Positions 37,808 through 49,043 are shown, counted from the first letter of the stretch. The stretch: DNA of 64,000 bases from Candidatus Woesearchaeota archaeon (GCA_964559675.1 CAZLHJ010000001.1:56285-120284); one strand, 5' to 3'. Notes: a model not told the origin generated them from the sequence alone. A program made the numbers and translations.

Positions 37808-38137
37808 ATGGCCCGAAATAAAACTAATACTACTGGTAGCATTGAATTTCCTAGAGTTCTTCCTCAATTAAAGGACTTGGATAAACTTAATTTAGATAAT
37901 GCAATAAAACGGCTTCTTAGAGAAGAAGCAAAATTATTCATTTATAGAAACAAGGTAATAGAAGTTAAAGATGAAACAATATGCTGTCATAAATGTTTAA
38001 ACGCGCACTTAGTCAAGACTTGGAACGATATGGGTCTAGATGGAGAAGGTGCAATAAAGCACTTAAAATTATGTGAAAAAGATATAGGTCACGAAGGATA
38101 TTACCTAGATGAAGAAAAACTTATCTCTTTATCTTAA
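37808..38137 (+). CDS. hypothetical Cys-containing protein
   Basis: 109-aa ORF with CCHKC...C. Confidence 0.35.
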   Translation: MARNKTNTTGSIEFPRVLPQLKDLDKLNLDNAIKRLLREEAKLFIYRNKVIEVKDETICCHKCLNAHLVKTWNDMGLDGEGAIKHLKLCEKDIGHEGYYLDEEKLISLS

Positions 38138-40081
38138 TTTTTTCATTTGAGAACCGATAAATTGTTGATGTTCAGATCTATCCACAACTCTTCTTACTTT
38201 GTAGAAATCTTCTCTCTTAGATCTTTCTACTTTTACGCTTCCCATTACTCTGGATTGTAATTCTCTAGAAATTAAGAATTCGTTATTAGAATAATCTGAG
38301 ATTTTCTTTGTTTTTATAACGGTATTTCCAATACTTGCGAATTTGAATTTTCCACCAGTTAAATCTACAACTAATTCTCCAATATGTGCTCCAATTCCAT
38401 AATCTATTTTCAATTTAGCTCCAGAATTGAACATATTTATTGAATCTTCAATTTGTTTAGCAACTTTAACAGCAACAAAACTATTATCTTCTTGTCCGGT
38501 CATTTTCTTTGTAAACATAATCAATCTATGATTTCCGTCGATAAATATTCTTGCTCCAGAGCTCTTTGCACTCATCAAAGCTTCTTCAACTACTTTAAGC
38601 CCTTGTGCTCCCTCTAAAGAATTATTTAATTCTCTATGGTTTCTTAAATATAATGAAACTATTCCTACTTGCTCTTTATTGCCTTGGTCCATGACTTCAG
38701 TTTTTCCCTCAGGCTTGGTCTTTTCTCTCCCAAATAATCTCTTTGTTTCAATACTTGTTACAGGAATAGAATCTTTCCTTCTCTTTCTATAATAAATAGC
38801 CAAGGTTGCTGCTAATATAATTAAAACCAAGACAAACCATGTAATAAATGCATATTTTCCAACAAACACTTCTCCAACGCTATCTACTCCAATTATTCTA
38901 GGTGTTAAGAAAGTTCTTCCAAGAGGAATTTCTCCAACTCCATCATTAACAAATACATCATATTCTCCCTTTGGAGCTTCTAATCTAATCCTTAACATCC
39001 CATTCACTGGAACATTTACTTCTCTAATTTCAGAAATCTCTCCAATTTTTACTTCAACAGGTTTTTTATATGGCACATTACCTTCATTAATTACAAATAA
39101 TGTTGAATTCTCGACGAAGAAGTTAACTTTTTCAAATTCTTCAACAAAGAATAATCTTTCATATTTCAAATCACTAAAGGTAGTTATTATTTTAGAATAT
39201 CCGCTAGAATAATTTCTAACTATCTCTAATTTTCTACTCTCGCCCGATTTAACTAATTCTTCCTTTATTAAATTTCCATTTGAATCATAAATTTGAGCAG
39301 CAATATTTTCATTTATTTTCTCTCCAGTTTGATCTTTTAATGTAATTTGATAAGATATTGAGTTTTCAGGAATTATATTTTGAACATCAGTCGCAATATC
39401 TATCTTACTAGGAACTTGTTTTATTCTTATTAAAAGACTTGAACTTCCCTTATTTAATGTGTTTCCATTATCATCTTTTTCTGAAGCATCGATTTTTAAT
39501 TTAAACTCTCCCGCTTTTGCATTTCCAGGAAGAGTTAAATTAGCGTCAAAGTTTCCATCTATTATTCTCGCATTTGTTTTAGCCTCAATGCCTTCAATCG
39601 AGATATCAACAAAACCATTAATTAAATCTCCATTTTTCTTAGCTACTTTTCCACCAACATAAACTACATCAGATGGATTAAAGATGGACTTAGAAATATC
39701 TACGTTTAAATCTAAATCTCTAGAAATTTCAAATTTCTGACTACTTGAAGTTTCAGAATCAAATTCTGCCTGAATAAAACATTCTCCTTGAAGATTTTCA
39801 ACAAAAACTCCTAACAAATTAATAGAAATTCCAACTTGCTTATCAATACCTTGTTTTACGCTATAAGGGCTCTTCAATAATTCTATGCTACTATTTCCAC
39901 AAACTAAATCTGCAATTAAAAAATCATTAATATTTTTCCCGTAACTTAATGTGATATCGACATCAAAATTATCTCCTATATTATAATAACTAGAAGGTTG
40001 AGAAAAGAAAATTTCAGCACTTACAGATGTTATTAAAAGAGCAGAAACTAGCACTCCCAATAGTAATCCTCTTTTTATCAT
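38129..40081 (-). CDS. receptor-like membrane protein: signal peptide, about 380-aa extracellular region, one TM helix, cytoplasmic degenerate class-III nucleotidyl-cyclase homology domain
   Basis: Signal peptide MIKRGLLLGVLVSALLITSVSA; TM ITWFVLVLIILAATLAIYY. The C-terminal GIGAHIGELVVDLTGGKFKFASIGNTVIKTKKIS and GARIFIDGNHRLIMF align with the CHD blocks (GIHtGpvvaGviG.kr..Y.v.GdtVN.AsR and kfIGDavMavF), but the canonical metal-binding Asp residues are not conserved. Confidence 0.5.
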   Translation of the reverse strand: MIKRGLLLGVLVSALLITSVSAEIFFSQPSSYYNIGDNFDVDITLSYGKNINDFLIADLVCGNSSIELLKSPYSVKQGIDKQVGISINLLGVFVENLQGECFIQAEFDSETSSSQKFEISRDLDLNVDISKSIFNPSDVVYVGGKVAKKNGDLINGFVDISIEGIEAKTNARIIDGNFDANLTLPGNAKAGEFKLKIDASEKDDNGNTLNKGSSSLLIRIKQVPSKIDIATDVQNIIPENSISYQITLKDQTGEKINENIAAQIYDSNGNLIKEELVKSGESRKLEIVRNYSSGYSKIITTFSDLKYERLFFVEEFEKVNFFVENSTLFVINEGNVPYKKPVEVKIGEISEIREVNVPVNGMLRIRLEAPKGEYDVFVNDGVGEIPLGRTFLTPRIIGVDSVGEVFVGKYAFITWFVLVLIILAATLAIYYRKRRKDSIPVTSIETKRLFGREKTKPEGKTEVMDQGNKEQVGIVSLYLRNHRELNNSLEGAQGLKVVEEALMSAKSSGARIFIDGNHRLIMFTKKMTGQEDNSFVAVKVAKQIEDSINMFNSGAKLKIDYGIGAHIGELVVDLTGGKFKFASIGNTVIKTKKISDYSNNEFLISRELQSRVMGSVKVERSKREDFYKVRRVVDRSEHQQFIGSQMKKLR

Positions 40082-40164: not shown

Positions 40165-41271
40165 ATGTCAAATAAAGAATCAGTGGTAAATCCATGGGAA
40201 GTTTCTGGAGATATTGATTATAATAAATTAGTAAAAGAATTTGGAGTAAGCATAATTCCAGATAATTTAAAAAAAGAATTCAAAAATCTTCATCCATTAT
40301 TAAGAAGAAGCATCTATTTTGCCCATAGAGATTTTGACAAATGGATAGAGAACCATAAAAAAGGTAAAAAAGTCTCAATTATTACAGGAAGAGGCCCATC
40401 TGAAAAAATGCACCTTGGCCACTTAGTTCCATTTTTAGTTGCAAAATCTCTCCAAGATCAATTTGATTGCGAAGTATTCATTCCAATTTCAGATGACGAA
40501 AAATTCTTCGTTAAAGAAGACTTGAATTTCAAAAATGCTTTAGAGTATTCTAAAGATAATATCTTAGATTTAATCGCACTTGGATTTAAACCAGGAAAAA
40601 CATTCATATTTCAAGACTTTGTCTACACAAATATCTACAAATACGCCGCCCAAGTTGCAAAAAGAATTAATTATTCTACTGCAAAAGCAGCTTTCGGATT
40701 AAAACCAGAAAATAATATCGGATGGAGCTTTTATCCAGCAGTTCAAGCAGCGCATATTTTATTCCCTCAATTTCAAAGGGGCAAACACCTTTCTTTAGTT
40801 CCAGTGGGGATAGATCAAGATCCATTTATCAGATTAACAAGGGATATAGCAAATCATAAAGATTTCAATTTTGAGAAACCTGCAGCAATCCACGCCCAAT
40901 TTATTCCTTCCTTACACGGAGGGGCAAAGATGAGTTCTTCTGGAGAAGGAGTAATCTTCTTATCAGATACTCCAAAGGAAGTTGAGAAGAAAATAAAGAG
41001 GTATGCCTTTTCAGGAGGAAGAGATACATTAGAAGAACATAGAAAATTAGGTGGAAATCCAGATGTAGATGTCTCATTCCAATACCTTAGAATTTTCTTT
41101 GAACCAGACGACATAGAATTAAAGAAAATAGAAAATGATTATCGAACTGGAAAATTACTTTCAGGTGAATTGAAACAAATTACAATTGATAAAATAAATG
41201 CATTTCTCAAAGAACATCAAGAGAACAAAAAGAAAGCCGAGAATCTCGTTGATAAATTTATATTAAAATAA
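40165..41271 (+). CDS. trpS: tryptophanyl-tRNA synthetase (archaeal/eukaryotic type)
   Basis: Class I HIGH-type motif MHLGHLVPF and KMSSS; archaeal-type N-terminal region. Confidence 0.9.
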   Translation: MSNKESVVNPWEVSGDIDYNKLVKEFGVSIIPDNLKKEFKNLHPLLRRSIYFAHRDFDKWIENHKKGKKVSIITGRGPSEKMHLGHLVPFLVAKSLQDQFDCEVFIPISDDEKFFVKEDLNFKNALEYSKDNILDLIALGFKPGKTFIFQDFVYTNIYKYAAQVAKRINYSTAKAAFGLKPENNIGWSFYPAVQAAHILFPQFQRGKHLSLVPVGIDQDPFIRLTRDIANHKDFNFEKPAAIHAQFIPSLHGGAKMSSSGEGVIFLSDTPKEVEKKIKRYAFSGGRDTLEEHRKLGGNPDVDVSFQYLRIFFEPDDIELKKIENDYRTGKLLSGELKQITIDKINAFLKEHQENKKKAENLVDKFILK

Positions 41272-41329: not shown

Positions 41330-41758
41330 TTATCTCTCTTCTTCTTCTTCAGATTCTTCGTCAGAATCATCAGACTCTTCATCAGATAAATCTTCTTCAG
41401 AATCATCATAGTCAATTTCTAATTCACTTAGAACTTGTAAAATCTTATCTAACTTAGCATTAATTTGGTCAAATTGCTCAGAAGATACTCCTCCAGCAGA
41501 TGATCCGTGTTTCTTAGCATCAAAGCAGTTATCACATAATACTGGTTTACTTCCAGTTGGTCTAAATGGAACTTGACATCTCTTTCCACATTTATCACAT
41601 GTAGCATCAAACATTTCAGTAGTACCATCTCTTCCAAATGATCTTCCTCTTCCTCTATCTCCACCGAAGCTTCTTCCTCCGCCAGATCTACCTCTATCTC
41701 CACCGAATGATCTTCCACCACCGGATCTTCCTCGACTATCTCTTCCAAAGTTTCCCAT
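41330..41758 (-). CDS. small protein with RGG/GRSFGG N-terminus, C4 zinc ribbon and acidic Ser/Asp/Glu tail
   Basis: GGGRSFGGDRGRSGGGRSFGGDRGRGRSFG ... CDKCGKRC...CDNC ... DDSEEDLSDEESDDSDEESEEEEER. Confidence 0.6.
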   Translation of the reverse strand: MGNFGRDSRGRSGGGRSFGGDRGRSGGGRSFGGDRGRGRSFGRDGTTEMFDATCDKCGKRCQVPFRPTGSKPVLCDNCFDAKKHGSSAGGVSSEQFDQINAKLDKILQVLSELEIDYDDSEEDLSDEESDDSDEESEEEEER

Positions 41759-41853
41759 AGAGATTTACTAAATCGTGGGTATTTAAAGGTATGTTATTTT
41801 GAAGTATCCTCCTTACACCTTAAATTAAAACTCCTTCAAGGCTTTCCAGAATA

Positions 41854-43164
41854 ATGGCTAAAGTAATAATTATAGGAGGAGGGCTTTCAGGGCTATCGTG
41901 TGCAGCAAAACTCATTGAAGAAGGCTTCGAAGTAGAAATATACGAAAAAGAATCCGAATTAGGGGGAAGGGCTTCAAATTGGATTGAGAAGGGAAAACCC
42001 ATTGAAAGTGGAGTTCACACATATTTCGGAATTTATTCTCATCTCTCTAAACTATTAAGAAAAGCAAATATCGATCTAAATAGTTTTTTGAAATGGCAAT
42101 ACTCAATTACATTCATAGGAAAAGATAAGAAAAAATATGTTTATGCACTAAATCCAATCCTCGCCCCAATAACTTTCTTAAAAGGAGTGTTTGGAAATAA
42201 TTCATTCCTATCTTTTTATGATAAATTCACTTTACTAAAATCAGTAATTTATGGCTTAACCTTTTTCAATTATTACAAGAAGCATACCTTAAGGGAATGG
42301 AAGAAAGATTCAAATTTATCAGAAAACGCATACGAAAACTTTATTAGGCCTCTTGTGAGAGGTTTAACCTTTGCAGAACCTGAGGAATTAAGTGCAAGGG
42401 TCTTCTTTAATTTACTTTTACACATGATAAAAAACCCCCTGAATGTCAAAGCAGGTAGTTTCAAAGGAGGAATGACAGATGTAATGATAAATCCGTTAGC
42501 AAAATGGTTAAAAAATAAAGGAGTTAAGATACACACAGATTCAGAAATATCTTCTTTAATCTACTCTAATCAAGATAACTCAATTAATGGAATAAAATTA
42601 AAAAATGGAAAAATAAAAAGTGCAGATATTTATGTTTCTGCAATACAATTAGAATTTATCCAGAAACTACTTCCAAATAAACTCTTCACAGAACTAAAAT
42701 CTATTGAAACTGTTCCTGCCACCTCAGTTCAAATCTTATTTGATAAAAAATTAATCTTTAATGATGATTTTCATTTCTTAGCAAGAAGTCCGTTCATAAT
42801 ATTTCAAGATGAATCTAATACTTTCTACCCCTCAATATCAAGTTATTTATCTGGACAAATTACAGATAGGAAAACAGACAAATTCTCAGATAAGGCACTC
42901 TTATATCTAGCCCTTAAACAGATTAATTTGTATCTCCCACAATCTAAGGATTCACAAGTAATTAAATCACATATTGTTAGGCACAATGCCATATTGCTTA
43001 CCCCTAAAAATTACAAGCTAAGGCCGGAGGCAAAAACAAAAATCTCCAATTTATTTCTAGCAGGAGATTACGTTAAACAAGAATGGTATACAACAATGGA
43101 AGGCGCAGTTAGGGGTGGAGAATTAGCCGCGAAAGAAATTATCTCTAAATTTTCCCCCATCTAG
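41854..43164 (+). CDS. FAD-dependent oxidoreductase (amine-oxidase/phytoene-desaturase-like)
   Basis: N-terminal dinucleotide-binding fingerprint KVIIIGGGLSGLSCAAKL...EKESELGGRA. Confidence 0.8.
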   Translation: MAKVIIIGGGLSGLSCAAKLIEEGFEVEIYEKESELGGRASNWIEKGKPIESGVHTYFGIYSHLSKLLRKANIDLNSFLKWQYSITFIGKDKKKYVYALNPILAPITFLKGVFGNNSFLSFYDKFTLLKSVIYGLTFFNYYKKHTLREWKKDSNLSENAYENFIRPLVRGLTFAEPEELSARVFFNLLLHMIKNPLNVKAGSFKGGMTDVMINPLAKWLKNKGVKIHTDSEISSLIYSNQDNSINGIKLKNGKIKSADIYVSAIQLEFIQKLLPNKLFTELKSIETVPATSVQILFDKKLIFNDDFHFLARSPFIIFQDESNTFYPSISSYLSGQITDRKTDKFSDKALLYLALKQINLYLPQSKDSQVIKSHIVRHNAILLTPKNYKLRPEAKTKISNLFLAGDYVKQEWYTTMEGAVRGGELAAKEIISKFSPI

Positions 43165-43660
43165 ACCCATGTCCTCTAGAATCTATATGTGTAAAATTAT
43201 GATATTTACCAAGTCCTCCTCTGTTACCCCAATGAGGATTTAAACGGTCATAAACTTCAATCGGATTAACTCCTCTAACAACAAAATCTACTGCAATCCC
43301 TTCTAAATGCTTACTATTCTCTTCACCACCAACTTTCTTATTTGAAACAGGATCTCTATACCAAGAGTTAACTGTGATGGGTTTATTTCCAAAATAGTCT
43401 CTCACTTCTTCCATAAAATTGGCAGCTTCTAAAATTCCTTTCACAATCTTTTCATTATTGGGAATTCTTGTTCCGTTCTTTGTCGCTTCTGCCCAATTAA
43501 AATGTCCTCCATTTAGAATTTTATCTCTTAATGAGACTTCTCCAACGTAAGGCAAAACTAATTTTCCAGTATTCGCTTCAGCAATATTTTGGGAAAAACC
43601 ATACGTGCTCATTCCTGCGACAATAAGCCCTTTAAGAAAATCTCTTCTACTTCCTTCCAT
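43145..43660 (-). CDS. Tat-signal peptidase M15 (D-Ala-D-Ala carboxypeptidase/VanY/DUF882-like) zinc hydrolase
   Basis: Twin-arginine signal MEGSRRDFLKGLIVAGMS; SWYRDPVSNKKVGGEENSKHLEGIAVDF...GGLGKYHNFTHIDSR matches the M15 pattern (SxHxxGxAxD...H). Confidence 0.75.
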   Translation of the reverse strand: MEGSRRDFLKGLIVAGMSTYGFSQNIAEANTGKLVLPYVGEVSLRDKILNGGHFNWAEATKNGTRIPNNEKIVKGILEAANFMEEVRDYFGNKPITVNSWYRDPVSNKKVGGEENSKHLEGIAVDFVVRGVNPIEVYDRLNPHWGNRGGLGKYHNFTHIDSRGHGSRWGKI

Positions 43661-43904
43661 ACTCCCTTTCCTCTTTTTTATCTAACTCTCCAAATAATTT
43701 TCTCTCAAATTCACCATCACTCTCTCCGTATTTGATTGAAGTCGGATTTCTGTTATATTCTTCTTCTGTTTGAACTCTTGTTAAATTATAATCTTTAGAA
43801 TCCTCAACGCATCTAACTACATTTCCAATTAAAACAGTACCTACTAATCCTCCAACAATCGCGGTTTCAATAGCTCTTCTTTTTATAAAATCTTTAAGTG
43901 ACAT
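43647..43904 (-). CDS. small membrane protein
   Basis: 85-aa ORF with one TM helix; overlaps the M15 gene start. Confidence 0.35.
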   Translation of the reverse strand: MSLKDFIKRRAIETAIVGGLVGTVLIGNVVRCVEDSKDYNLTRVQTEEEYNRNPTSIKYGESDGEFERKLFGELDKKEEREYGRK

Positions 43905-44037
43905 TTCACCAACCTCCTTCTTTAAAGCGCTGGTAAAATCAATTCACATTTTCCCTTTTTAAATCTTTCTATTTGTAGTTACTAGATAATAATAACACTT
44001 TAGAAAAGCTTAAATACTCAAATTTCATTATTTTTTT

Positions 44038-44613
44038 ATGAATTTAAATCCATTCACAGTAGTAGACAACGCCTTAGTCTACGGAGCATCCAAATTAACT
44101 CACGCGAATTGGGCAACCGGAGAAACTCGAGCTCAATTAGCAAATAAAATGCTAACAATAGGTTCAATAAGCCAATCTGTCGGCCTACCTCCCACTGCCC
44201 CTCTTTGGTTAGGTATAGCTCATCTTCATCAAAAACGAAATAATAAAGCTGACGAATTGGACTCACAAGCAAATGAAAATTCAGCAATTGATTTAAATCG
44301 TCAAGAATACCATATTTTCATGAGTTATATATTTGGTGCACTAGCAAATTATCATTTTCTTAATCAAGATGAAGGCCCTATTGTTGAATTCGCACATACT
44401 CTTTTAGGTGCAGGCCATTCATTAGTCTCAGCATCGCACTTCGTCATGAGAACACCATACTTACCTCCAAAGAAAAACTGCGTAAGAAGAGGAGTTGACA
44501 AATTATCTGAGATGGTTGAAAAATACAAACCACAACCAAAAACAGAAAGAGAGGCTTTACCTATTCCAGCTTTAGTCAACAATAAAAACTATTTATTAGA
44601 GAATTTAATCTAA
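44038..44613 (+). CDS. hypothetical protein
   Basis: 191-aa ORF between the two hydrolase-like genes. Confidence 0.35.
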   Translation: MNLNPFTVVDNALVYGASKLTHANWATGETRAQLANKMLTIGSISQSVGLPPTAPLWLGIAHLHQKRNNKADELDSQANENSAIDLNRQEYHIFMSYIFGALANYHFLNQDEGPIVEFAHTLLGAGHSLVSASHFVMRTPYLPPKKNCVRRGVDKLSEMVEKYKPQPKTEREALPIPALVNNKNYLLENLI

Positions 44614-45197
44614 GAAGCTCTTCGCAATAAAGTATCTCGAATAATTTCAACAGGTCGATTATTTATCTCTATTAATTGTCTAAGTGAAACCACTCTTCTC
44701 TCTGAAATTCTTTGCTCTCCTAAAATTAGAGTTCCGCTTGGAAGCTCGCCTAAAAATACTCCTACATGAGTATATCTCACAGGTTTTCCTTCCCTATCTA
44801 AATTTTTATTGAATCTACTTCCAGGATGATAAATACCAATAAGATCTCCCTTTCCAATTTCACCATTTCTAAATTGCTCTTGAAAATCATGAACTTGAAT
44901 TGTCTCATAAACTAAATGTAAATCCCATGCTGAAGCTAAACAATCTTGTGAAGGAGCATATCTTTTACCAAAAACCTCATTTGCAACTATTCTAGCATAT
45001 TTTACACAATGAAGTGGTGGAATAAAATCTAAATTATATATTGGAAATTCACAAACACTTCCATCATTTAATTTAATCAAATCCACTCCAGATTTTAGAT
45101 CGTCTTCTTCTACTCGTAATTTAGTTATATATGAGCTATCAACCATTCCATGATTTTTGACATCAACATCTTTAAATATATCTTTTTTCTCCCACAA
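44610..45197 (-). CDS. NlpC/P60-like (papain-fold) hydrolase
   Basis: Cys motif APSQDCLASAWDLHLVY (DCSG-like) followed by the His motif RYTHVGVFLG. No signal peptide. Confidence 0.55.
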   Translation of the reverse strand: MWEKKDIFKDVDVKNHGMVDSSYITKLRVEEDDLKSGVDLIKLNDGSVCEFPIYNLDFIPPLHCVKYARIVANEVFGKRYAPSQDCLASAWDLHLVYETIQVHDFQEQFRNGEIGKGDLIGIYHPGSRFNKNLDREGKPVRYTHVGVFLGELPSGTLILGEQRISERRVVSLRQLIEINNRPVEIIRDTLLRRAS

Positions 45198-45199
45198 TT

Positions 45200-46927
45200 A
45201 TGAAGATATTGACATTACATTGCGATTATATCAAATATAAACCCTTGAAGAAAGCTTTCAAGGATGCAGAGGAACTTAAAAACAAAGAACAAGTAGAAGT
45301 TAGTGAGCCGCTTGTAGTTTTAGCAGCAGTTGAAAAAGGAGATTCAGACTCAGAGGTAAAAAAAGTTGTTGAATCAATCGATAAAACTGCTAAAGAAGTA
45401 AAAGCAGAAAATATTGTAGTTTATCCTTATGCTCATCTCTCATCTAATTTATCCAACCCAAACACCGCTTTAGGATACTTAACAGAAATAACAAAATCTC
45501 TCCAGAAATTAAAATATAATGTAGAGAGGGCACCATTCGGACATTACAAAGAATTCGAATTAAAAGTAAAGGGGCATCCATTATCTGAATTATCCAAAAC
45601 TTTCATTTCAGAAATTCAATCTAGTAAGGCAGAATCTAAAGAAGAGGAAAAAGAAGAAGATATTTCTAAGCTTCTTAAAGAGATTTCACGTTCAAAACTA
45701 GATACAAGTAAACTAAAAGAAAACGACCACAGAATTCTCGGACAAAAATTAGATTTATTTTCATTTAACGAATCAGCTCCTGGAAGTGTATTCTGGCACC
45801 CTAATGGGCAAATATTATATGCAGAACTTGTAAGATTTTCAAAAGAAATTCAAAAAGATTTAGGATATCACGAAGTATCCACCCCTCAGATTTACGATAA
45901 TAAATTATGGAAAGTTTCAGGACATTGGGGAAAATACAAAGAAAATATGTTTTTAACAAATTATGAAGGAAAAGATGCTGCAGTAAAACCGATGAATTGT
46001 CCAGGACATCATCTTTTATTTAGAACCAAAACGCGAAGTTATAAAGACCTTCCATTAAGATTTTCAGAATACTCTCCATTACACAGAATGGAATTATCGG
46101 GAGTATTAAATGGATTATTCAGAGTAATTAGATTACATCAAGACGACGCACATATATTTATCGCACCAGAGCAATTAGAGAGCGAAGCAACAAATGTACT
46201 AAATCTTTTCAAGCAGTTTTTAGATAAATTCGGATTTACTTATACTTTTACCTTAAGTGTAAGAAGTAAAGAAAAGAAAGACAAATATCTTGGAGACGAT
46301 AAATTATGGAAAGAAGCAGAAGATTCGCTTGAAAAAGTTCTAAATAAAAATAAACTTAAATTCGAAAGAATGGAAGGGGAAGCAAAATTCTATGGTCCAA
46401 GTCTAGATGTTCAGATAAGAGACTCCCTTGGAAGAGAATGGCAATGCTCCACTCTTCAAGTAGACTTTAACCTTCCTAGAAGATTTGAATTACAATACAC
46501 TGGAGAAGATAATAAACCACACATGCCAATAGTTTTACACAGGGCAGTTTTCGGTTCTTTAGAAAGATTCATTGGAATACTATTGGAGCATTTAAATGGA
46601 AATCTTCCAGTCTGGCTTTCACCAATTCAAGTAAGAGTAATTAATTTCACAGACAGAAATACAAAAACAGCTGAGAAAATAATAGAAAAGTTACAAAAAG
46701 AAATTCCTTCTTTAAGAATTGACTCAGACTTAAGAAATACCACCGTAAATGATAAAGTTAGAGACGCCGAATTAATGAAAATACCTAATATTGTAGTAAT
46801 CGGAGATAAAGAGGAGGAAAAAGGAACTTTAGCAGTAAGAAGACGTGGCGAAAAGAAACCTGAATTCGGAGTAAAATTAGAAGATTTTGTTAAAGAATTA
46901 AAAGATAAAATTGAGAAGAGAAATTAA
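45200..46927 (+). CDS. thrS: threonyl-tRNA synthetase (archaeal type with N-terminal editing domain)
   Basis: Archaeal N-terminal editing domain and class II core (FWHPNGQ..., MNCPGH, motif 3 region). Confidence 0.9.
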   Translation: MKILTLHCDYIKYKPLKKAFKDAEELKNKEQVEVSEPLVVLAAVEKGDSDSEVKKVVESIDKTAKEVKAENIVVYPYAHLSSNLSNPNTALGYLTEITKSLQKLKYNVERAPFGHYKEFELKVKGHPLSELSKTFISEIQSSKAESKEEEKEEDISKLLKEISRSKLDTSKLKENDHRILGQKLDLFSFNESAPGSVFWHPNGQILYAELVRFSKEIQKDLGYHEVSTPQIYDNKLWKVSGHWGKYKENMFLTNYEGKDAAVKPMNCPGHHLLFRTKTRSYKDLPLRFSEYSPLHRMELSGVLNGLFRVIRLHQDDAHIFIAPEQLESEATNVLNLFKQFLDKFGFTYTFTLSVRSKEKKDKYLGDDKLWKEAEDSLEKVLNKNKLKFERMEGEAKFYGPSLDVQIRDSLGREWQCSTLQVDFNLPRRFELQYTGEDNKPHMPIVLHRAVFGSLERFIGILLEHLNGNLPVWLSPIQVRVINFTDRNTKTAEKIIEKLQKEIPSLRIDSDLRNTTVNDKVRDAELMKIPNIVVIGDKEEEKGTLAVRRRGEKKPEFGVKLEDFVKELKDKIEKRN

Positions 46928-48590: not shown

Positions 48591-49043
48591 TTAGTTACAA
48601 ACAACTGTCTTTGGAGAAAAGTCACATGTGTTTGTCTCTCCATTTTCTTTCAAGACAACTCCTGCTACTCTAACTTCACTTGGTGTTCCAGCAACTCCAG
48701 TCAAATTCGCGCTAGCTGTAGCTCCCTCAAGAATTCCTCCAGGAATCGTACTAGTAGACCTGACAATCGTTTCATCACCATACTTAAATCCAAGTTTAAC
48801 TTCAGTTAAATCAACATCTCCGCCCTTCCATCTATATTTGACAGTAGCATTTTTTGAAGTCGAATCATAGTCACAACTTGTTGGTTCAAGCTCAAGTTCA
48901 ATACAACTTGTAGTTAAACTCTCTCCTGCTTTCTGAATAGCGGGTTTTACAAAACTCCAAACTATTAATACAGCAGCAATTGCAAGTAAGATAATTAAGA
49001 CAGTAGTAACAACATCACTCAATCCTCTTTTATTTTTATACAT
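48591..49043 (-). CDS. archaeal type IV pilin-like protein (class III signal peptide, DUF361-like)
   Basis: MYKNKRGLSDVVTTVLIILLAIAAVLIVWSFV, the signature of a prepilin-peptidase-processed archaeal signal. Confidence 0.75.
   Translation of the reverse strand: MYKNKRGLSDVVTTVLIILLAIAAVLIVWSFVKPAIQKAGESLTTSCIELELEPTSCDYDSTSKNATVKYRWKGGDVDLTEVKLGFKYGDETIVRSTSTIPGGILEGATASANLTGVAGTPSEVRVAGVVLKENGETNTCDFSPKTVVCN

Follow-up and report, generated by a model that had tools for sequence, protein, structure and literature searches.

A candidate murein-directed hydrolase locus between two aminoacyl-tRNA synthetase genes of a Woesearchaeote

A 64,000-nucleotide (nt) stretch of the genome of a Candidatus Woesearchaeota archaeon (GCA_964559675.1 CAZLHJ010000001.1:56285-120284; hereafter the window, with positions counted from its first letter) carries, beside the gene for threonyl-tRNA synthetase (ThrRS), two proteins that resemble enzymes of bacterial wall breakdown, namely a zinc peptidase of family M15_3 (hereafter M15) with a predicted export signal, and a Cys/His protein (hereafter CH) that profile comparison and a structure model assign to the NlpC/P60 superfamily. 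Archaea lack a bacterial-type murein wall, and we lean, with modest confidence, towards a murein-directed hydrolase locus in a Woesearchaeote that does not itself make murein. The evidence that carries this reading is the family membership and catalytic residues of M15, the alignment of CH with known murein endopeptidases, and the interval between the tryptophanyl-tRNA synthetase (TrpRS) and ThrRS genes of relatives, where CH adjoins murein hydrolases of three unrelated folds. The features concerned are as follows (lengths in amino acids, aa).

43145..43660, minus strand: M15, zinc peptidase of family M15_3 (MEROPS M15A type; PF08291), 171 aa
43574..43660, minus strand: predicted twin-arginine signal peptide of M15, MEGSRRDFLKGLIVAGMSTYGFSQNIAEA, read from the sequence and likely cut after AEA
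44610..45197, minus strand: CH, Cys/His hydrolase of a new NlpC/P60-superfamily family by profile-profile comparison and model, 195 aa from TTG

The M15 peptidase and the CH protein

The M15 open reading frame (ORF) matches Peptidase_M15_3 (PF08291) at 69.7 bits (E=2.7e-19, cut-off 23.2), phrog_894, a family of phage endolysins, at E=1.7e-26, and the zinc DD-carboxypeptidase of 1LBU at E=1.6e-5 as a single sequence and E=1e-9 as a profile. The zinc ligands are His118 (43307-43309), Asp125 (43286-43288) and His158 (43187-43189), with Asp160 as the catalytic residue and Arg102, in an SWYR motif, as the substrate-binding residue, and all five are invariant in 81 of 81 aligned homologs. The family match and the invariance of these zinc and catalytic residues suggest that M15 is an active enzyme. 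An earlier annotation made by a model from the DNA alone (the sequence-only reading) had called M15 a zinc peptidase, in agreement with the Pfam score, the 1LBU match and the intact catalytic set, whereas the D-Ala-D-Ala specificity that it attached to the protein is the label of the family only. Relatives of M15 include DD-, LD- and L-Ala-D-Glu peptidases.

The N-terminus of M15 (MEGSRRDFLK..AEA|N, with the two arginine codons at 43643-43648) has the layout of a twin-arginine translocation (Tat) signal, in which SRRDFLK provides the S-R-R-x-F-L-K motif, GLIVAGMSTYGF a moderately hydrophobic h-region, and SQNIAEA an A-x-A site, after which, at AEA, we infer cleavage. The twin-arginine motif is retained in M15 orthologs as SRRDILK, TRRSFLG and NRRQFII, and M15 is the sole ORF in the window to carry one.

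The nearest named homologs of M15 are cyanobacterial (53-59% identity over the catalytic domain), and the wider family around it consists of phage endolysins, with 479 phage records at 30-54% identity. Two close relatives (L089 and L090) lie on cyanobacterial contigs, with CHASE2/DUF928 and CpeS genes as neighbours. In a neighbour-joining tree, short forms with only a signal peptide group with the window protein (clade including P0012, 99 of 200 bootstraps); this archaeal clade is marked by the signature GGLGKY, where the cyanobacterial counterparts have GG(L/I)AS(A/G)S, and by a Tat or Sec signal as its only addition to the catalytic domain, where the cyanobacterial relatives have other N-terminal extensions. 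All five members of the clade that can be placed (the window, W, with L003, L087, L122 and L123) adjoin an archaeal-type ThrRS and/or TrpRS gene of Woesearchaeota affinity, and the archaeal orthologs at the ThrRS locus have diverged to ~49-59% identity. The simplest reading of these sequences would be one old bacterial import of M15, whose N-terminal domain was swapped for an export signal and which was then inherited vertically. The cyanobacterial nearest relatives and the phage endolysin family thus bear out the bacterial origin that had been proposed for M15, and the phylogeny does not place it in an archaeal family for pseudomurein or S-layer housekeeping. Its suggested status as a remnant of horizontal transfer is unlikely, given intact catalytic residues, host codon usage and the same locus in at least five lineages.

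CH has no match in Pfam, NCBIfam, PHROGs, PDB sequences or a phage tblastn search, and a word-indexed protein search finds only CH itself when queried with the protein and two clusters when queried with a two-sequence profile. Synteny uncovered a homolog of 36% identity in a Rifle groundwater relative, and when the two-sequence profile was searched exhaustively with HMMER, 282 cluster representatives (136 with E<=1e-10), mostly 160-230 aa long, were recovered, so that the family counts at least 282 clusters. An ORFan status for CH, which we had considered, is overturned by the synteny and by this search. The predicted catalytic triad is Cys64 (45006-45008), His144 (44766-44768) and Glu161 (44715-44717). 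In an alignment of 94 family members, Cys64 and His144 are each conserved in 93, Trp91 and Gly117 are invariant, and position 161 is polar in 91 (His in 44, Glu in 31, Asp in 10, Gln in 3 and Asn in 3).

The profile of these 94 sequences aligns by hhalign with one of Escherichia coli MepS, NlpC, MepH and YafL (probability 94.6%, E=6.6e-8, 99 columns), such that Cys64 falls on the cysteine of the DCSG motif, His144 on the histidine of HVGIY, and position 161 on the third catalytic residue (FxH), whereas a control comparison of the CH profile with the M15 alignment gives 0.36%. The hidden Markov model (HMM) of PF00877 does not detect the window CH, and Pfam matches among the 94 members are all sub-threshold (NLPC_P60 at E=0.011, CHAP at E=0.0011, and Peptidase_C92 in four). 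An AlphaFold (AF2) model of CH (mean predicted local distance difference test, pLDDT, 88.8; predicted TM-score, pTM, 0.85; residues 1-17 disordered) places Cys64 at the beginning of a helix (64-76) and His144 at the beginning of a strand (144-151), with an extra N-terminal beta region. Papain-fold enzymes make up nearly all of the top-ranked Foldseek matches of the model, those at the head of the viral library being CHAP and NlpC/P60 murein hydrolases (probability 0.91-0.99). On profile and model evidence, CH is a new, unannotated family inside the NlpC/P60 superfamily, and lies outside PF00877 by the threshold of that HMM. The NlpC/P60-like call of the sequence-only reading is borne out by the profile-profile comparison and the structure model alone; the bacterial import that it also proposed for CH is not; CH is an archaeal family specific to the lineage and sits at a conserved place between TrpRS and ThrRS.

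Translation of CH probably begins at Met18 (ATG at 45146), for a protein of 178 aa; this start is favoured because TTG would leave a gap of 2 nt to the divergent ThrRS gene, and by the spacing of the TTTAAATATA element (below) to the ATG. Some 27-44 of the 94 family members carry signal or anchor segments, several of the signal-bearing ones with RRxFLK motifs or lipoprotein-like ends. The idea that a CH without a signal hitch-hikes on a signal-bearing hydrolase, and that a CH with a signal stands alone, was rejected, because in L106 and L116 a CH with a strong N-terminal hydrophobic segment lies next to a secreted Hydrolase_2. Separately, a giant protein of 6,400 aa (P0103) matches residues 41-88 of the CH profile in 15 separate stretches, which suggests a giant surface protein in which the N-terminal beta region and Cys-helix segment of CH are repeated.

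The TrpRS-ThrRS interval and the layout of the locus

The genomic context of CH was surveyed by contig look-ups, a degenerate-pattern scan of metagenomes and local HMM annotation, and the taxonomy of CH members was read from neighbouring genes. CH is present in ~21 distinct lineages and, on contigs of sufficient length, almost always has TrpRS and/or ThrRS as a flanking gene. In seven of the ~21 it abuts a murein hydrolase, which belongs to one of three unrelated folds: M15_3 in W and L003, Amidase_3 in L110 (E=2.5e-39), and SleB-like Hydrolase_2 in L093 and L094 (above the Pfam threshold) as well as, in divergent form, in L106 and L116 (E~1e-21 to 1e-24 with a local HMM, 0.0065 with that of Pfam). 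M15 holds the same interval without CH in L087, L122 and L123, and overall a murein hydrolase occupies the TrpRS-ThrRS site in ~10 of 25 lineages. Hydrolase and CH genes lie on the same strand, with gaps or overlaps of a few to ~25 nt, in L003 (where a small transmembrane ORF sits between CH and M15), L093, L094, L106, L116 and L110, and such nearly touching same-strand genes favour a functional coupling of the two. No homolog of murein-synthesis proteins is found in the 333 kb made up by the window and 32 related loci, a small part of each genome.

A further family of 275-285 aa, which has no Pfam match, adjoins CH at L114:1-642, L115:199-1056 and L119:1624-2451, and could be a fourth type of CH partner.

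The flagged interval (43145-45197) holds four ORFs of 171 aa (minus), 85 aa (minus), 191 aa (plus) and 195 aa (minus). The two ORFs that separate M15 from CH (43647-43904, minus, and 44038-44613, plus) replace the one gene of the sequence-only reading. The remaining features are these.

43647..43904, minus strand: bitopic membrane protein of 85 aa, in which a transmembrane helix (~11-34) follows a basic N-terminus and precedes an acidic tail
43905..44037, no strand: divergent AT-rich intergenic region with TTTAAA-type elements, a presumed promoter region by sequence inspection
44038..44613, plus strand: orf191, conserved protein of 191 aa
45168..45178, no strand: TTTAAATATA element, centred at ~45173, ~27 nt from the Met18 ATG of CH (45146) and from the ThrRS ATG (45200)
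45200..46927, plus strand: ThrRS (PF08915, PF00587, PF03129), a synteny anchor
40165..41271, plus strand: TrpRS (PF00579), the second synteny anchor
41330-41758: insert gene for a zinc-finger protein of the treble-clef type (PF23477), 142 aa, which has RGG repeats and ends in an acidic tail
41854-43164: insert gene for a 436-aa amine-oxidase/phytoene-desaturase-type flavoprotein (PF01593)

By a codon-frame score trained on the long ORFs of the window, all four ORFs are positive in their own frame (0.23-0.41; M15 0.31, the 85-aa ORF 0.41, orf191 0.23) and negative in the other five, with values inside the range of the remaining genes of the window. The own-frame-only signal indicates that the four ORFs are real genes with host-typical codon usage. 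The four-gene arrangement recurs in independent JGI and Logan assemblies, which shows that it is no assembly chimera. The GC content is uniform at ~32% throughout the window, among whose housekeeping genes are archaeal CDC48, GluRS and a ThrRS with the archaeal editing domain PF08915; the best full-length matches of this ThrRS are Woesearchaeota metagenome-assembled genomes (51-73% identity). The editing domain and these matches identify the host as an archaeon of the DPANN group (Woesearchaeales), as the sequence-only reading had supposed. No tRNA or Rfam feature is found in the window.

The 85-aa ORF is preceded at 7 nt by a strong Shine-Dalgarno sequence, AAGGAGGT, and overlaps the start of M15 by 14 nt (..TATGGAAGG..), an overlap that makes translational coupling of the two probable. 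Small ORFs built in the same way overlap the start of the hydrolase gene in two relatives, namely that of M15 in L003 and that of the SleB-type Hydrolase_2 in L093, and in L094 the hydrolase itself has an N-terminal transmembrane segment. The 85-aa protein has no significant sequence similarity to these positional analogs; the likeness of its C-terminus to that of the L003 analog (..E-x-x-Y-G) may be a nucleotide constraint, as it coincides with the overlap with the ribosome-binding site and start of M15. An identity of the 85-aa protein as a holin was tried and dropped, the match to the phrog_24402 HMM being insignificant (E=0.031).

The intergenic region at 43905-44037 is presumed from its sequence to be the promoter region between the 85-aa/M15 operon and orf191. 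The latter has no match in Pfam, NCBIfam or PHROG, and breaks the CH-M15 gene order that is found in the relative L003. In L116 the corresponding place of the cassette is taken by a homolog of orf191 (28% identity, E=5e-11), which indicates that orf191 is a genuine gene and may be a cassette accessory. At the other end of CH, TTTAAATATA is a candidate TATA box that, judged by its spacing, may be shared bidirectionally by two leaderless divergent transcripts.

ThrRS adjoins CH and/or M15 in most of the related loci. On the TrpRS side, a lineage-specific insert (41330-43164) sets TrpRS and M15 apart in the window, and neither its zinc-finger protein nor its flavoprotein is present in the relatives examined. 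Beyond TrpRS, the minus strand at 38129-40081 encodes a probable surface protein of 650 aa, which has a signal peptide, matches MG2 (alpha-2-macroglobulin-like) weakly and carries a C-terminal transmembrane segment; since its homologs adjoin TrpRS in 13 related loci, it forms part of the conserved syntenic block. Signal sequences of the archaeal class III (type IV pilin-like) kind mark small proteins encoded close to the locus, at 48591-49043 (minus strand) of the window and at L095:6953-7393 of a relative, which fits a cell-contact lifestyle rich in surface appendages.

The interval of relatives also houses genes of other kinds. At L007:2150-5968, a primase/Toprim-like gene of 510 aa and two large genes without assignment are probable mobile cargo, as are LAGLIDADG-type genes at L087:6652-7791 and L104:5117-6244, and the TrpRS-ThrRS site may be an insertion hotspot. 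Toxin-antitoxin pairs lie just outside the cassette in L093 (MazE/PIN, 1121-1938) and L094 (MazE/ParE, 245-771).

Proposed roles and rival explanations

In the murein-directed reading, M15 would be folded and loaded with zinc before export, probably by the Tat pathway, and its signal would be removed after AEA. Once outside the archaeal cell, the small mature single-domain enzyme would cut bacterial peptidoglycan at its peptide stems or cross-links, and the 85-aa membrane protein may tether or regulate this enzyme. CH would hydrolyse another peptide or amide bond of the murein peptides; the bonds that NlpC/P60 enzymes usually hydrolyse are gamma-D-Glu-diamino acid or D-Ala-meso-diaminopimelate (mDAP) bonds. 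By analogy with Bacillus subtilis YkfC, which is cytoplasmic and acts on imported stem peptides, the signal-less CH of the window lineage would most likely work in the cytoplasm on such imports, and the CH proteins of sister lineages that have Sec or Tat signals or lipoprotein-like anchors would act outside the cell. The purpose could be to break through, or hold on to, the wall of bacteria that serve as host or prey, or else to recover amino acids from murein. The earlier proposal of weapons or tools against bacterial walls or host envelopes gains support from context, in that Hydrolase_2 or Amidase_3 takes the place of M15 beside CH in relatives.

A bolder version, which we consider rather unlikely, sees the TrpRS-ThrRS interval of Woesearchaeales as an evolvable bacterial-wall toolkit and a determinant of host range, in which CH is constant and murein hydrolases are swapped to match wall chemistry. 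The M15, SleB-type and AmiC-type amidase members would in that case be bacterial-derived and differ in bond specificity, with small co-translated membrane proteins and orf191-type accessories serving as tethers or regulators.

Several observations weigh against the murein-directed reading. The substrate, bond specificity and export of M15 and CH are all ones that we infer, and neither protein has a wall-binding domain. The Tat signal named by the sequence-only reading stands as a textbook motif that orthologs keep, and falls short in the Tat HMMs, both of which score below cut-off (PF10518 at 17.2 versus 22.7 bits, TIGR01409 at 11.9 versus 16.7). Searches with E. coli TatA, TatB and TatC find no homolog in the 64-kb window and 32 related loci (333 kb in total), a search space with only ~64 kb from this genome. 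The M15 homologs were sampled by a word-indexed search, and their neighbour-joining tree has an uncertain root and moderate support. For CH, Foldseek returns no significant match (E>0.01, TM-score 0.35-0.41), and neither the window protein nor its nearest relatives have a signal peptide, so that CH may not be extracellular in the window lineage. In the window, the opposite-strand orf191 splits CH from M15 and precludes their co-transcription. About 14 of the 21 CH lineages have no recognised murein hydrolase beside CH, which, together with the three M15 loci that lack CH, indicates that the pairing is facultative. The unrelated cargo of the interval (primase-like element, LAGLIDADG genes, toxin-antitoxin genes, zinc-finger protein and amine oxidase) means that part of the association of CH with hydrolases could reflect an insertion hotspot.

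Taken to its end, this last point yields an explanation in which the neighbours are coincidental: M15 alone would be a murein-active import, and CH an unrelated amidase or peptidase that is cytoplasmic in this lineage, with protein modifiers or small thiol or peptide conjugates as conceivable substrates. Such a chance association, to which we give low credence, accounts readily for the missing signal peptide of the window CH, for the opposite-strand gene between it and M15, for M15 without CH in L087, L122 and L123, and for the primase-like element of L007, the LAGLIDADG genes of L087 and L104, the toxin-antitoxin genes and the amine oxidase. It is harder to reconcile with the six lineages (L003, L093, L094, L106, L116 and L110) in which a hydrolase is the immediate same-strand neighbour of CH, with the presence of otherwise rare murein hydrolases at this site in 10 of ~25 lineages, and with the homology of CH to murein endopeptidases, whose catalytic residues align with its own. 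Housekeeping of an archaeal envelope is another explanation that we hold to be improbable: CH, and possibly M15, would act on the surface of the archaeon itself or of an archaeal host, in the maturation of S-layer or pilin proteins or on peptide cross-links or D-amino-acid surface polymers, and not on bacterial murein. The vertical, lineage-wide inheritance of CH and its fixed place between two aminoacyl-tRNA synthetase genes in more than 20 loci allow such a role, as conserved synteny with housekeeping genes would, and roughly half of the CH members are exported or anchored, most CH lineages have no murein hydrolase nearby, NlpC/P60-fold enzymes elsewhere are established to have non-murein substrates, and the known hosts of DPANN archaea are mostly archaea (PMC8204110). 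Against it stand the independent placement beside CH of M15_3, SleB-type and Amidase_3 proteins, whose characterised members are murein-active, the nesting of M15 with bacterial and phage murein enzymes, and the lack of wall-synthesis genes in the sequence available; nor do Pfam and NCBIfam scans of the four proteins and the 94 CH members find a pseudomurein endoisopeptidase (PeiW/PeiP) or other archaeal wall family.

The overlap of a one-helix small ORF with the start of a phage-endolysin homolog, together with the weak holin match (phrog_24402, E=0.031), could also be taken as the trace of a viral lysis cassette, domesticated or residual, in which the 85-aa protein and M15 derive from the holin-endolysin pair of a bacteriophage or archaeal virus. 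This we regard as very improbable, since the holin match is insignificant, no further viral genes are found and the flanks are aminoacyl-tRNA synthetase and metabolic genes; moreover, M15 has its own export signal, is nearer to cellular cyanobacterial proteins (55-59% identity) than to phage proteins (30-54%) and is stably inherited at one chromosomal site, and a murein endolysin would be useless for the self-lysis of a murein-free archaeon. The murein-directed reading thus remains the one that we favour.

Relation to known systems

DPANN lineages make up a large share of archaeal diversity, and the locus bears on the question whether any of them live on bacteria. It adds two small, tractable single-domain enzymes of a kind that escapes surveys of domain architecture, a family of the NlpC/P60 superfamily that had no annotation and occurs widely in Woesearchaeales, and a fixed chromosomal site at which three murein hydrolase folds were recruited. 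If the enzymes are muralytic, they would provide a genomic marker and recombinant targets for the attack on, attachment to or feeding on bacteria by Woesearchaeota, and for the wall chemotypes concerned, and they could be a source of new antibacterial activities.

Among the bacterial enzymes closest to CH are E. coli MepS, MepH, NlpC and YafL, whose catalytic Cys, His and third residue align with those of CH and follow one another in the same order. CH differs from them in its motifs (P-x-x-x-C-A-x-Y-A-R and Y-T-H-x-x-x-Y-L-G, where the E. coli NlpC/P60 proteins have D-C-S-G and H-V-G-I-Y), in being archaeal and syntenic with aminoacyl-tRNA synthetase genes, and, for the window copy, in having neither signal peptide nor lipobox. 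M15 belongs to the same Pfam family as the Streptomyces albus G enzyme (1LBU) and the phage endolysins of phrog_894 and shares their H-x6-D...H-x-D zinc motifs, but 1LBU has an N-terminal peptidoglycan-binding domain, whereas the archaeal clade has a Tat or Sec signal only. The overlap of a small membrane-protein gene with the start of an endolysin-family gene recalls the holin-endolysin cassettes of phages; unlike these, the locus shows no significant holin homology or viral context, and M15 brings its own export signal.

In Woesearchaeota and Pacearchaeota, large SLT/GH23 proteins have been described, and an interaction with bacteria proposed (Castelle et al. 2015/2021, Vigneron et al. 2022; PMC8204110, PMC9723730). 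Those systems and the present one share the archaeal group and an inferred extracellular binding or degradation of bacterial walls that suggests episymbiosis or predation. The former are GH23/SLT glycosidases in giant proteins of up to ~3,000 aa (PMC8204110, PMC9723730), whereas the enzymes of the window are small, of peptidase or amidase type, directed at the peptide moiety, and organised around a conserved NlpC/P60-like gene.

A close parallel is the work of Strock et al. 2025 (PLoS Biol, PMC12352652), who found modular murein hydrolases in ~5% of archaeal genomes, with Nanoarchaeota prominent, and demonstrated the killing of a bacterium by two enzymes of a haloarchaeon, Woldo and Danwoldo from Halogranum salarium. 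PF08291 is among the catalytic domains that they list, and M15 has in common with their hydrolases a bacterial origin, murein-free hosts, frequent Tat or Sec export and a patchy distribution (PMC12352652). Their survey required a catalytic plus a wall-binding domain, a design that excludes single-domain proteins such as M15 and CH, and among its Woesearchaeales entries are LysM+SLT types, unlike either of the two (PMC12352652). Strock et al. demonstrated enzyme activity and described no fixed locus with exchangeable partners (PMC12352652), whereas the locus of the window is known from sequence alone. Murein hydrolases in archaea are therefore already established, and what is new here is the M15_3 clade of Woesearchaeota, the unannotated family akin to NlpC/P60, and a locus that keeps its place while the hydrolase partners change.

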